A stretch of DNA of 64,000 nucleotides, taken from Eledone cirrhosa. Its lineage: Eukaryota. The number at the start of each line of letters is the position of its first letter. The first letter of the stretch is position 1. The stretch covers positions 333,188,001 to 333,252,000 of the forward strand of contig OZ024740.1 in assembly GCA_964016885.1 (NCBI GenBank). Reading direction: 5' to 3'. The notes below the pieces were generated by a model. It was not told the DNA's origin and did not search any database. It was given only the letters and a program-made list of their open reading frames with translations. This document shows positions 9,711 to 58,445 of this stretch, piece after piece. The position numbers were made by a program, and so were the translations under genes.

Positions 9711-10077
9711 ACGATATTAAATAAATGGAAACTATATTTATAAAACCATATTTATTTCATTATATATATTTCAGGGATATCATATTAACAATATGCTATG
9801 CCTTCCTCAGACAAAATACAATATAAACAGTTTTATAGATAAATAGATTTGACATACCGTACAACATCGACTTGTATTTGAAAAGTTGAATTGGCAGTTC
9901 AACTTTTCAAATACAAGTCGATGTTGTACGGTATGTCAAATCTACTTATCTATAAAACTGTTTATATTGTATTTTGTCTGAGGAAGGCATAGCATATTGT
10001 TAATATGATATCCCTGAAATATATATAATGAAATAAATATGGTTTTATAAATATAGTTTCCATTTATTTAATATCGT
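9711..10077. repeat. Near-perfect fold-back palindrome, ~180 bp arms, loop TTGGCAG
   Basis: 9711-9890 is the reverse complement of 9898-10077. Confidence 0.95.
9970..10036 (+). ncRNA. Type I hammerhead ribozyme motif (mirror copy on minus strand at ~9752-9818)
   Basis: tattttgt-CTGAGGA-agg.ata.catatt/aatatg.tat.cct-GAAAT-atat-ATA-atgaaata. Helices I and II pair. Confidence 0.65.
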
Positions 10078-12270
10078 AAATATACTCCAAATACTTGTCG
10101 AGTGCTTTTATATCAGTTATAAATATTTACTAGTTGTAACCCAACAATTTAAATATAACTTTCTATGTATATATATATATATATATATATATATATATAT
10201 ATATATATATATATATATATATGTGTGTGTGTGTGTGCGTTTGTGTGCGTGCGTGCGTGTGTGTGTGTGTGTGTGTGTGTGTGTGTGTGTGTGTGTGTGT
10301 GTGTGTGTGTGTGTGTGTGTGTGTGTGTGTGTGTGTGTGTGCGTGTGTAGTTATGTATGAGTATGGAAGTATGGTAAAAGTACGTGTGTTTGTGGGTAGG
10401 TAATGCACAGTAAATACAGAGCTTCTCGAATGTACTTACTAGACGCGTAGCTAGAAACATTATGAATTTTGTTATATATATATTTTGTATTCAAATATCT
10501 ATGCAATAAATGTTTTGCGCCATACACTACAGATGAAGATGTGCTTCATCTCTTTAAATTCTGATGCAAATTAATCGGAATTCGAGGCTAAATTGGATAT
10601 ATCTTATCGCATATAATTGGCTATTGTAGGCCTATTGTGTCAAATAACTTCATAAAACTCCAATAACTTCATAAAACTCAAATAACTTCATCAAACCTGT
10701 ATCGGTGTGACCAGAGAAAAATAAGGTCTAGTGATGCATGCAACTAATCTTTCCAGTAACAGTGAAGATAATTACTGACACAGCAGCGTACGTACCCATT
10801 TTCATACACACACACTCACAGATCGCATATAGGAACAAATACTTTTATACATAAGTGCATAGGCACGCGCTCACACATACATACATATATATATATATAT
10901 ATATATATATATGATATTGGACACCCTGCAGGACAAAAAACAAAACCTGACAAGGGGCAGAAGAACTCACAAAAGTCAACGGCCATCCAAAAGTGTGTAA
11001 ATATGTATATACACATGTACCGCACGGTTAAACCAGTGGGTGTGAAGGACCCCTAATCTTTGTTCAGGCATTCTACTAGGAGAAGGCAACTCAGGAAACT
11101 GGGATAACTCCGATATAAAACATGCGGCTCAGTAGTTACCGATGATGTTGATCTTTTCTTTTTTTCGGGTTATAGCTACTGTCGCTCAGAGAGTGGCATT
11201 GGTTCAGTGCACGTCTTTCCTCACTTTAAAACACATCTTCACGCACAATCATTGCAGGATAGAATTAATTAATAATTATTAATAATGGTATATCATGCAA
11301 TATCCATACTCCATAACGAAGGGGCAGCCCTCATATATATATATATATAATATCAGGTTATCAATAATGTAGTGATAATATATCGTTACGTTAGAGATGA
11401 ACAGCGTACGTGTAGGTTTGCTCAAAAAGTATAAATTATATTCCGGAGAAAATGTAGAAAAGATGAATATAAAATGAAAGTGCTTTTTTAAAAAAAAGGA
11501 ATTTATTAGGTATTGACATATGTTTCTGTAACAGACGGAATACCTATGTATCACTGCTTGCGTAATCATATAATGTTAGCAAGTATTCGATAGCAAATGT
11601 ATAATCAACTAATATTTATATTAGTTGTAATAGAGGAAGAAAAGAGGGGATAGTATATGACAGATGGTAATTCAATTTACTGCTAAACAAGTATATAAAG
11701 GGTTTTTAATGAGAATACAATGAGTAAATGGTTTATTTTATCTAAATAAGAATTTTTGGGAGTGCCTATTTTAATCTATACTTGACCAATTGAACAATGG
11801 ACAGGGCTGATCCTTTGGTGTAGTAGTATTAATTATAAAGTGTCAATTAAGGAAGGGGGAGATTTCGACTGCTACTGAATAACATCAATGCTAGTAGCCA
11901 GCTAGTATATGCATTAGGGAATTGAATTAAGAAATCTCATTTTATCTATAGCAGTTTATATTAAATGGTAAATAATAGAAGAGTTGATAGAATTAAGACT
12001 AATAGAGAGTGTTAATATGTATTTTGACAATCAAACGGAGATGAAAACAGGCGTTCAATCCTGGTAGTATTTGTTATATATATATATATATATATACACA
12101 TATCTATGTATATATATATATATATATATATATATATATATATATATATATATATATATATATATATATATATATATATATATATATATATATATATATA
12201 TATATATATAAATAAATATATATACATATATATACATATATATATATTTATATATATATATATATATATA

Positions 12271-12971
12271 ATAGAATAATCGAGTATCGGAAAATCAGCT
12301 CACGAATTAACGATAAACAATATCCGATATGAGTGGCAGAGGGCTCAATAATTTGGATAAATCAGAGCTATAACTATCGTTAAATTACCAACACATAGAG
12401 ATTATGCCTAAAATCACCCGTGCAGCCGAAAAAGAACGACCAGGAAGATTCGGGTCACTCAAATAAAATATCAATAAATCAATAATTTAAATGAATGTAA
12501 AAAACTTACCCGGACCCGCTAGAAGGGTGTTAAATCTAGCTTCCTGGGTTTCTGCAATTCCTTAATCCGTTCACTATCAGCCCACATAAAAATATATAAG
12601 ACCTCTAGAGAAGGACTGGACCGGAAGAGCTTTATCAACGGGTTCCGTCCGATACTAAAGAAGTGACCTTTAGCCAGACACGCACATGGTGCCCAGCAAG
12701 GGAGATAACCTCTATATTAGCGAAAAAATTTTCGGTAATGTGGAAATCAAGTAGGGATACAAAATATCACATATCGAATCAGAGTGCTCAATAGACATGT
12801 TAAAATAAACAGGAGCTATTCATCAGTCAATAGAATCGACAAAAAATGATCAATAAAATTAACTGGTCAATAACTAGGTCTAGAGCTAAATATAATAGAA
12901 TAATCGAGTATCGGAAAATCAGCTCACGAATTAACGATAAACAATATCCGATATGAGTGGCAGGGGGCTCA
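12271..12971. repeat. 624-bp unit with a 77-bp terminal direct repeat, inserted in (TA)n (pLTR/retrozyme-like)
   Basis: 12271-12347 is repeated at 12895-12971 with one mismatch. Confidence 0.85.
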
Positions 12972-13263
12972 TACATAGATATGTATATATATATATATAT
13001 GTATATATATATATATATATATATATATATATATATATATATATATATATATATATATATATATATATAAATATATATACATATATATACATATATATAT
13101 ATTTATATATATACATACATATATACATAGATATGTATATATATATATATATATATATATATATATATATATATATATATATATATATATATGTGTGTGT
13201 GTGAAGTAATTCCGTCGGAAAAGTCCAGGAAAAAAGAGTGCTCTATGTAGGTATCAGAGCTTA

Positions 13264-56929: not shown

Positions 56930-57085
56930 TTATGAAAACTCAAGGACGTTACAATACCGGCAATTGTAGGAATGATACCAAACGGAACAGTAGTTGAGGA
57001 TGATTCCTAATTTAACCTCTCTGCAAGAGATGAAAAATATTGATTTAACATGTACTCCACACATGTTTAGAAAATCACTGTGGCA
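56930..57085 (+). mobile_element. R4/Dong-like non-LTR retrotransposon C-terminal remnant
   Basis: KLKDVTIPAIVG and SLQEMKNIDLTCTPHMFRKSL resemble the RLE-type terminus (IPVIVGALG...LQEIQKIVL.GTAHILRK). Confidence 0.5.
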
Positions 57086-57912
57086 GTGTGAATGATAACC
57101 CTCAGTGTATATATATATGTGTATGTTTTAATGCGTGTGTGTGTGCGTGAACGCATGTATGTGTGTGTATATATATTTATATATATATGTGTAAATGTAT
57201 GTATCGGTATATATATGTATGCGTGTGTGTGTATGCGAATATATATATATATAGTTTTGCGAGGTTTTTATATGAAATCGTGTGTCGAAACAAATATTGT
57301 GTGTTCTGTTATTAATTCTGGCAATATTACACAAATATGACCCTCCCCAAATATAACAATATATATATATATATATGTATATATATATATATATATATAT
57401 ATATATAGAGATAGAGAGAGAGAGAGAGAGAGAGAGAGAGAGCGAGATAGAGAGATAGAGAGATAGATAGAGAGAGAGAGAGAGAGAGAGAGAGAGAGAG
57501 AGAGAGAAGAGAGAGAGAGAGAGAGAGAGAGAGGGGAGGAAAGGAGTTAGTGAGTGTGTGTGTATGTGTGTTTAGCTGTAACTATAATTAATACGCTGTG
57601 TTTACGAATCTGGGTCTTACTAATGTATTCAATGAGTTTATTTGGCACAGCTATCAGGAAGACCCTCTGCAAAAGCCAAACGGAAACAATTCTGAAGTAT
57701 ATATATATATATATATATATATATATATATATATATATATAGAGAGAGAGAGAGAGAGAGAGAGAGAGAGAGAGAGAGAGAGAGAGAGAGAGAGAGAGAG
57801 AGAGAGATACTATGAATGCGCAGGACGAAAACAGAGTGTGTACATTTTTTTTTTTTTTACTTGACATTCTGCAAAAACCAAACGGAAACATTTCTGAAGT
57901 ATATATATATAT

Positions 57913-58445
57913 ATAAACGGAAAAAAATGAAACGAAATTTCATTTCACACTCTTAGTACGGCTGTTACTTAAATATAAGTATGTATACGTACATACATAT
58001 ATGTATACAGACGTACAGTAGTATGTATATATACATACATGCACACATCTATATATGTACGTATTTATATTTCGAACATTTATTATAATGCTCGGTGTGT
58101 TTGTAAACAAACATCCCGTATTAAGCCGTAGTGTCCAGCAACCATCGTTGCTCGTTTGTTCAAAACTGACAAAGGGACGCTGTACTAGTTTCAAGCTTAT
58201 TAGCTATCGTCAGTAACGTATACCTTCCTGCCAGATGATTGTCTGAAAGTATATACTTTCCTCATGCATATTAACGACTGAGTAGCCCAATTTGCATATT
58301 GAGTGGGTTAATCGGCCTGGTGCCCCGAAAACGATAAACGGAAAAAATGAAACGAAATTTCATTACCCCTCTTAGTACGGCTGTTACTTAAATATAAGTA
58401 TGTATACGTACATACATATATGTATACATAAATGTATACGTACAT
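57913..58445 (-). repeat. HHR-bearing unit (1 and a partial copy, period ~421 bp), same family as 19756-20586
   Basis: ATAAACGGAAAAAATGAAACGAAATTTCA occurs at 57913 and 58334, and the unit is a reverse-complement match to the 19.8-20.6 kb units. Confidence 0.9.
58177..58219 (-). ncRNA. Minimal hammerhead ribozyme
   Basis: Minus strand: acgtta-CTGACGA-tagctaataagctt-GAAAC-ta-GTA-cagcgt. Confidence 0.75.

Follow-up and report, generated by a model that had tools for sequence, protein, structure and literature searches.

In this study, we report the analysis of a 64,000-nt stretch of the Eledone cirrhosa genome (contig OZ024740.1; hereafter the window), which lies within an assembly of 2,995,841,428 bases, has a GC content of 36% and is rich in microsatellites. 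The window carries 24 hammerhead ribozyme (HHR) motifs, damaged homologues included, which fall into 16 families by our own grouping and were confirmed as genuine type I hammerhead folds. We consider it very probable that these folds lie in the 3' ends, the pseudo-long terminal repeats (pLTRs), of many families of Penelope-like elements (PLEs), likely of the Hydra clade, whose 5'-truncated and inverted copies are dispersed beside (TA)n, mixed with short tandem elements that lack an open reading frame (ORF) and likely use the PLE enzyme. The observed part of this explanation comprises the fold, its covariation, copy numbers, position in the pLTR, inversions, 3' ends at (TA)n and the ORF motifs.

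Motifs were sought with a descriptor consisting of helix I, the core, a domain II of up to 160 nt, the GAAA box, a short helix III and UH. It admitted the cores CUGANGA, CCGANGA and UUGANAA, and was tuned on the window and the first stretches fetched. The window gave eight strict and 11 relaxed matches, compared with means of 0.075 and 0.2 (maximum 1 for each) in 40 dinucleotide shuffles of 500-nt blocks, and its reversed sequence gave none. All 11 relaxed matches have core, GAAA and UH in the type I order, two of them with the U4C change, while the cores at 13676 (CCGUCGA), 13434, 48458 and 49824 fail on the core. A further 13 damaged or variant motifs were added by BLAST with matches from other loci, a scan for long helix III and inspection, and roughly half of the 24 carry damage. 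Two hits of the long-helix-III scan, 60324 and 12638, were discarded because of its shuffle background (0.57); 47281 and 47534 were retained despite that background on family evidence. Another candidate, 60612(-), was discarded as having neither helix I nor a homologue. Sampling of the genome covered 749,400 called bases in 75 stretches of 10 kb, which were placed at round positions on large contigs and did not include four stretches that flank the window; the strict descriptor gave 92 matches in 35 of the 75 stretches, and six shuffles gave 0-1. On their sequence, these HHR-shaped motifs, including long-armed and core-mutated variants, are putative self-cleavers.

A sequence-only reading of the window had named 15 such sites with the core CUGANGA. 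All 15 hold HHR-shaped sequence, and for 14 of them either a descriptor is passed or homologues at other genomic sites show a canonical core; the other, 48386, is HHR-like by eye, with no homologue found in the DNA examined. Eight sites pass the relaxed descriptor (9970, 13296, 19857, 31088, 39670, 42874, 45896 and 46239). The other seven fail through the core CCGUCGA (13594), a broken helix II (20308), a damaged helix I (28280) or helix II (46722), a mismatched first pair of helix I (48022 and 58177) and an altered GAAA box (48386). The core given there is correct except at 46239, 46722 and 48022, which have CCGANGA (U4C), and at 13594. The motifs 7006(-), 9518(+), 9810(-), 13434(+), 23978(-), 28092(+), 47281(-), 47534(+) and 49824(+) were additional to its list. 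Its view of many mutually unrelated type I families was upheld, as were the motifs themselves by two of the checks it had proposed, namely the shuffled sequence (above) and covariation among genomic copies (below). It had also expected the elements to escape ORF-based annotation, and this extends to Rfam, which gave no match in the window at the gathering score, no hammerhead family among 150 matches listed of 276 at E <=10, and eight matches within 45800-46400, none to a hammerhead family.

The features of the window that carry HHRs are as follows (L numbers denote other stretches of the assembly).

6940..7014 (-): damaged HHR of family M, with mismatches in helices I and III and a 3' part like that of families C and E; three homologues are better paired
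9512..9553 (+): HHR of family U, core UUGAAAA (U3-A8 covariant), 3-bp helix I
9704..10084: inverted pair of family B, two 5'-truncated PLE 3' ends back to back, cores 9810(-) and 9978(+), predicted cleavage after 9761 and 10027; ORF in register in L173, L176, L177 and L191
13264..13530: inverted pair of family C, core 13348(-) passing the descriptor and 13434(+) damaged; L185 has the GIY-YIG end upstream, both arms
13592..13682 (-): HHR-like motif of family N, core CCGUCGA (U4C + A6U), 60-nt domain II, in the pLTR of a Hydra-type PLE
19749..20582 (+): ORF-less tandem element of family A, unit 451 nt, ending in (TA)n; cores 19863 (passes) and 20314 (helix II broken)
23916..23986 (-): HHR of family D, passing the descriptor, at a PLE 3' end; pLTR-ORF-pLTR in L378 and L380
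28087..28176 (+): HHR of family Z, core CCGACGA, 61-nt domain II
28279..28339 (-): HHR of a family B subfamily, helix I damaged
31040..34177: truncated PLE with an inverted arm; HHR of family E, core 31151(-), passing the descriptor, on the inverted 3' untranslated region
32391-33251 (+): linker and GIY-YIG fragment of the family E PLE
39618..43076 (-): full-length, frameshifted Hydra-type PLE with pLTRs at 39618-39872 and 42819-43076 and ORF pieces at 40369-42615
39774 and 42978 (cores): HHRs of family F, one per pLTR of this PLE, 82-nt domain II, GUU site
43365..45943 (+): GIY-YIG end fragment (43365-43759) and, 2.1 kb downstream, HHR of family G, core 45899, 3-bp helix I
46196..46813: inverted pair of family H, PLE 3' ends, core CCGAAGA (U4C); 46282(-) passes, 46727(+) has a damaged helix II
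47041..47774: inverted pair of family I, ORF-less tandem element, unit ~414 nt, cores 47281(-) and 47534(+)
48020..48144 (+): HHR of family J, core CCGAUGA, with a domain II of 94 nt and a mismatch at the first pair of helix I; no parent element found
48386..48466 (-): degenerate HHR-like motif K, 8-bp helix I, GAAA altered, no homologue in the DNA examined
49818..49857 (+): HHR of family P, GAAA box mutated
57913..58390 (-): copy of family A, core 58213, first helix I pair mismatched

Carriers of the hammerhead folds

Seven families (B, C, D, E, F, H and N), holding 12 of the 24 motifs, are pLTR ends of Hydra-type PLEs, and their copies in the window are mostly 5'-truncated or inverted. For each of the seven, copies were found with an ORF for reverse transcriptase (RT) and GIY-YIG endonuclease in register; they are therefore truncated PLE copies rather than separate elements, and the link to PLEs that the sequence-only reading had drawn holds for these motifs. 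HHRs were located in both direct repeats around the ORF for F (window), B (L191), D (L378, L380), H (L180) and N (L372), while C and E were observed as 3' ends only; L183 also links family H to a PLE ORF. Since the stretches between paired HHRs were chosen by spacing, they demonstrate linkage and not frequency. In the window, the two family F cores lie in 258-nt direct repeats (91.5% identical) around frameshifted RT and GIY-YIG pieces, and relatives elsewhere have open frames of 768-918 aa, several equal in score, with an HHR on either side. The family E HHR lies on the inverted arm of the fragment at 32391-33251. Judged from spacing alone, the family G HHR is probably the end of a truncated PLE with the GIY-YIG fragment. 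No parent ORF was found for family Z in four 6-kb stretches.

Among 12 long ORFs of the open F-type relatives, the Hydra motifs were present as RWK in 10, DKT in 12, CxCX5C in 10, CxxC in 10 and CxH in seven; by eye, P0001 has no CxxC inside GIY-YIG. The PLEs therefore likely belong to the Hydra clade, an assignment made by motifs. Pfam did not recognise the Hydra-type ORF pieces of the window, and a search for homologues of the PLE protein returned 73 matches, mostly unnamed and of 31-46% identity, by which the clade is not named.

A partner of the same family within 1.5 kb was inverted upstream at 49 of 171 centred loci and inverted downstream at five, some of these loci being the two arms of a single pair; an inverted upstream partner is the 5' inversion typical of PLEs. 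Most copies of families B, C, D and H end between +35 and +56, counted from the cleavage site, and (TA)4 occurs within 150 nt downstream in 28/30, 27/30, 15/15 and 15/30 copies, respectively (8, 10, 4 and 8 in control windows). In the majority of cases the 3' end abuts (TA)n. Helix III, for which the descriptor demands merely two pairs and a loop of up to 3 nt, is a perfect palindrome in 66 of the 92 sampled matches and a near-palindrome in 15, family I being an exception. Six helix III sequences have self-pairing energies of -3.2 to -13.3 kcal/mol and form no hairpin on their own.

HHR ends of different families are often adjacent or nested at one (TA)n, as at 28092(+)/28331(-) and 13290-13680 and in L187, L344 and L383, and such shared tracts suggest repeated insertion at identical targets. 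The PLE-type inversions also form long near-perfect hairpins (9704-10084, 13264-13530, 46196-46813, 47041-47774 and 31657-34177), which Rfam mistook below the gathering score for microRNA precursors and which, if transcribed, would be a large source of double-stranded RNA.

Two other window families, A and I (five of the 24 motifs), consist of ORF-less, retrozyme-like tandem units with PLE-type inversions. Family A forms arrays of 2-7 near-identical units of 420-492 nt, is circularly permuted and runs upstream into its own 3' end. An inverted upstream partner was found at 14 of 38 loci, 20 of 38 were solo within 1.5 kb, and the best copies are spread over many contigs. Three sequence runs, all consisting of contigs from a single sample with the character of genomic DNA, each held 53-66 contigs in which a single 3' point leads into (TA)n. 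Apart from the ambiguous L189, none of 46 family A loci was found to contain a PLE ORF in register. The family I unit of ~414 nt occurs twice in L350, and no PLE ORF was found upstream in 15 loci. Its window HHRs have a helix II one G shorter than most copies and a long, non-palindromic helix III which, going by its sequence, could act as a monomer. The insertion junctions of families A and I lie in (TA)n. Inverted tandem arrays of 311-nt units (L044:6135-7907) make up a third HHR family without an ORF, which accounts for 17 of the 92 sampled matches, in two stretches.

In all, the 92 sampled matches comprise 30 of tandem type, 30 of families shown to be PLEs and 32 with no parent assigned. 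By analogy, families A, I and the 311-nt family would correspond to non-LTR retrozymes. The sequence-only reading had taken the elements to be non-autonomous and mobilised by neighbouring PLEs. The first description fits family A (19863, 20314 and 58213) and family I (47281 and 47534), and fails for the seven families of ORF-bearing PLEs. As for the second, the inversions and (TA)n signatures of A and I support PLE-driven mobilisation of retrozymes; the PLE ORFs of the window itself are broken, and open relatives lie elsewhere.

Long domain II and core variants

Domain II, the segment between the two core halves, exceeds 55 nt in seven of the 92 sampled matches and measures 20 nt or less in 50. 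Families F, J, N and Z, with 60-94 nt, depart from a 7-8 bp helix II with a small loop. Unrelated families have in common an internal loop of 5'-YGA(G/A/U)U with UAGC-3', and a pattern of this loop, GAAA and helix III gave 11,837 genome matches (control 15). The count from a looser pattern (17,045, control 809), which also catches short-domain family H and other repeats, was dropped.

The long-domain HHRs were aligned with MAFFT (26 copies in eight labelled groups, row Z283 being without its 5' part). RNAalifold, unaided and on the unfitted alignment, returned only six pairs, in the stems flanking the internal loop, four of them double-changed. In a structure of 23 pairs, 90% of cells pair and 15 pairs are double-changed, compared with 28-40% pairing in slid controls; as this structure was drawn from the same, related sequences, the figures are support and not a probability. 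Helix I was 97% paired, with two of three pairs double-changed, and basal helix II 95%, with three of four. The covariation score of the 26 copies was reached by none of 500 shuffles. In group K, and again in group J, one row has C-G at pair 51-86 where the other has U-A, and column 15/120 of alignment A1 is variable. When single domains were folded, seven of eight had z-scores of -1.7 to -2.5 and one of -0.6. Of 62 copies picked by homology, 55 retain every core base.

No long-domain variant was found in the literature listings searched, although earlier descriptions of such variants may exist. The Hydra HHRs examined in File S2 of PMC8557442 are all short, and the "long helix II" of PMC13725137 is one of 6 bp. 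On the model outlined here, the long domain II likely helps the RNA to fold or to bind protein. It is a candidate site for the protein that assists PLE ribozymes. With its covarying stems and conserved loop it would evade descriptors that limit loop II. Two further groups were noted: an HHR family with a domain II of 94-97 nt, predicted to form a three-way junction and not a single hairpin (L023:8132-8263, L099, L195 and L238), and HHR-like sequences with an imperfect core that share the internal-loop pattern (L088:1681-1813 and L030:5810-5942, the latter near a tandem HHR family).

Core variants were also found to be carried by whole families. Hand counts of the first 100 matches listed gave CCGAAGA in 99 for family H, in which U4C is fixed, and for family N U6 in 79, A6 in 19 and other bases in two. 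In a tree of family N, 21 U6 rows form a short-branched clade, and five CUGACGA rows are long-branched and lie outside it. Each of the two pLTRs of L372 carries CCGUCGA, and a search of five CCGUCGA elements revealed no second HHR. From these sequences, a young PLE lineage (family N, 1,342 copies) appears to have spread with the CCGUCGA core, and the motif at 13594 is not a case of one-off decay, given the prevalence of U6 among the copies listed. The sampled cores are canonical in 83 of 92 and have the compensatory U3-A8 pair in five, the descriptor itself selecting these cores. U4C lowers activity in vitro and A6C cleaves at <0.1 per min (PMC3088659); A6U in a hammerhead context was not found in the literature listings searched. 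An anole PLE inserts in vitro without HHR cleavage, its HHR mutants still inserting (PMC11167929). Whether PLEs require cleavage by their HHRs is a question for which the sister subfamilies CUGACGA and CCGUCGA offer a natural comparison.

Genome-wide abundance and interpretation

The very high density that the sequence-only reading had claimed was confirmed, yet the window is no hotspot: the sample holds 7.9 strict matches per 64 kb, which is the level of the window and thus ordinary for this genome. Extrapolated from the sample, the genome would hold ~3.7 × 10^5 HHR motifs (bootstrap 2.4-5.3 × 10^5), or ~120 intact-looking motifs per Mb (~1 per 8 kb). Exact patterns set floors of 10,046 for A (31-nt pattern), 42,214 for B, 2,913 for H, 6,315 for C and 19,944 for D (sum 81,432); the pattern for N gave the 1,342 copies mentioned above, and reversed-pattern controls gave 0 for all six. 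Published counts are 120,000 in the axolotl, >6,000 in a coral and ~5,000 in a mussel (PMC7229834), and ~9,000 in Xenopus tropicalis (PMC4209133). As these rest on other descriptors, and as no genome-wide count for the schistosome SMalpha family was found in the literature searched, "largest population" is a provisional description. Since Rfam found none in the window, HHR counts for such genomes would be far too low.

HHRs in PLE ends and in tandem retrozymes have both been published already, and the novelty lies in the scale, the long domain II and the sister cores CCGUCGA and CUGACGA; a copy number of this order, HHRs whose domain II of 55-115 nt contains a covarying stem and a conserved GA(G/A/U)U/UAGC loop, and a spreading CCGUCGA lineage were not found in the literature examined. 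Like published PLE HHRs, the motifs described here occur in both flanking repeats ~3 kb apart and in many families per genome, form opposite-strand pairs 100-700 bp apart, are mostly single motifs from truncated PLEs, and have a palindromic helix III and a covariant U3-A8 core. They differ in number (thousands there, such as ~9,000 in X. tropicalis, under a different descriptor), in the seven sampled matches with a domain II beyond 55 nt, where the published helix II has 7-8 bp, and in whole families with U4C or U4C + A6U. Hydra-clade PLEs (Craig et al. 2021, PMC8557442) share the C-terminal GIY-YIG, RWK, DKT, the CxCX5C linker, CxxC and CxH around E and N, (TA)n targets and a type I HHR near the 3' end. 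They are generally <3 kb and few per genome, whereas the spacing here is 3.2-4.9 kb and families are many, and the HHRs of their File S2 measure 80-100 nt including ~40 nt of flanks, in contrast to the several families with a long domain II. Metazoan non-LTR retrozymes (Cervera and de la Pena 2020, PMC7229834; bioRxiv 10.64898/2026.07.22.740005) resemble families A, I and the 311-nt family in their ORF-less tandem units of a few hundred bases, one type I HHR per unit and coexistence with PLEs. Those retrozymes are expressed as circular RNA, whereas the families described here are known from DNA alone, and the PLE-type 5' inversions of A and I, a direct structural hint of PLE mobilisation, were not met in the retrozyme literature examined. 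Natural core variants (Perreault et al. 2011, PMC3088659) include U3-A8, U4C and position-6 changes as rare single cases, whereas in this genome families with thousands of copies have U4C fixed, and an expanded lineage is marked by U4C + A6U.

Under the proposed explanation, the palindromic helix III would let two HHRs in the transcript of a tandem PLE or tandem unit pair with each other and cleave that RNA, perhaps assisted by the PLE protein, to give circles or RNA of unit length. An uncut or re-ligated site would lie 35-56 nt upstream of the point at which reverse transcription begins, and every insertion, even the shortest, would thus copy an HHR. HHRs would be abundant because each insertion copies the one at its 3' end, and an uncut or circular template would account both for intact HHRs at the 3' end of the shortest copies and for the lack of 5' ends at the site. 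Most genomic copies are likely passive: a solo copy has nothing to pair with in cis, and the arms of an inverted pair would form a long sense-antisense hairpin. By having spread, the CCGUCGA lineage suggests that the fold is of greater importance than rapid cleavage.

Several points weigh against this explanation. A pile-up of 5' ends at the cleavage site (H17+1) was absent in five families, with 0 fragments starting at +1; this fits uncut or circular templates and gives no sign of cutting in vivo. Eight of nine Xenopus retrozyme dimers did not cleave (bioRxiv 10.64898/2026.07.22.740005), and the HHR of the anole PLE required protein and was not necessary for in vitro insertion (PMC11167929). 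PLE endonuclease fragments lie upstream in three of 46 family A loci, L189 and L328/L329; the latter two overlap, with their fragments on the opposite strand, and L189 has the HHR of another family in between. Family A may therefore have a coding parent. Six of the 24 window motifs, like 32 of the 92 sampled, have no parent assigned. The HHR-to-HHR spacing of 3,181-4,856 nt exceeds the "<3 kb" of the Hydra clade, which is a tendency and not a strict criterion, and the clade assignment stands on motifs rather than on an RT tree.

A more far-reaching combination is put forward only tentatively: that this is the largest HHR population described (~1 per 8 kb), that the long domains of 55-115 nt form a new subclass whose GA(G/A/U)U/UAGC loop binds the PLE protein, and that the CCGUCGA lineage kept the fold, lost cleavage and spread to about a thousand copies. 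If true, this lineage would show in nature that PLE retrotransposition needs the hammerhead structure and not its catalysis.

The alternative that survives best, possible though doubtful, is that the fold is kept in PLEs mainly as a structural signal for RT binding or priming or for translation, cleavage being weak or dispensable. It is favoured by family N, with ~1,340 copies, its predominant U6 (79 of the first 100 listed), a short-branched clade, both pLTRs affected and no second HHR in five elements, by the fixation of U4C in family H, by the conservation of the non-catalytic domain II and by the in vitro insertion of the anole mutants. It is opposed by the conservation of the core (83 of 92 canonical and five U3-A8 among descriptor-selected matches, 55 of 62 among homology-picked copies), which argues for selection on catalysis in most lineages; moreover, family N could move in trans, or C4 could rescue U6.

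The view of the sequence-only reading, that most motifs belong to independent non-autonomous retrozymes with small circular RNAs, mobilised by PLEs, appears unlikely. Families A, I and the 311-nt family do have one HHR per ORF-less unit, and tandem types equal the PLE-shown families in the sample (30 of 92 each), but seven of nine parent-resolved window families are PLE ends, and the 30 tandem matches are concentrated, with A in 6/75 stretches and the 311-nt family in 2/75.

It is more improbable still that A and I are satellites derived from a single pLTR and grown by unequal crossing-over instead of retrotransposition, a model discussed in bioRxiv 10.64898/2026.07.22.740005. Head-to-tail arrays of up to seven near-identical units would suit it; against this stand 10,046 exact core matches for A with its best copies on many contigs, the 20 solo and 14 PLE-type inverted loci out of 38, and a shared 3' point joined to (TA)n.

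An origin of the motifs by chance in AT-rich, repeat-rich DNA is refuted for the families and has next to no probability overall. Bare CUGANGA does occur ~21 times in shuffles, and of the 51 such heptamers in the window the majority do not belong to HHRs, but the full descriptor gave 8 versus 0.075 in the window and 92 versus 0-1 in the sample, the reversed patterns gave nothing for six families and the folds covary; chance is still possible for the single motif 48386.

Other elements in the window

A Pif1-type helicase fragment at 25390-26301 (+) matches PF05970 and PF21530 and probably derives from a Helitron. By Pfam, a broken long interspersed nuclear element at 16149-18619 (+) has an AP-endonuclease, an RT and a C-terminal PHD finger. 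The RT fragment at 2026-2655 (-), with a weak RVT_1 match, no Hydra motifs and no HHR found alongside, is presumably from a PLE of another clade, of the Neptune/Penelope type. An open frame of 351 aa at 35282-36337 (-) has no Pfam match, and we take it to resemble the transposase of a DNA transposon. Other dispersed or inverted repeats, without HHRs, were located at 26779-26907 and 55073-55200, at 39013-39136 / 39474-39597 and at 48628-48945.

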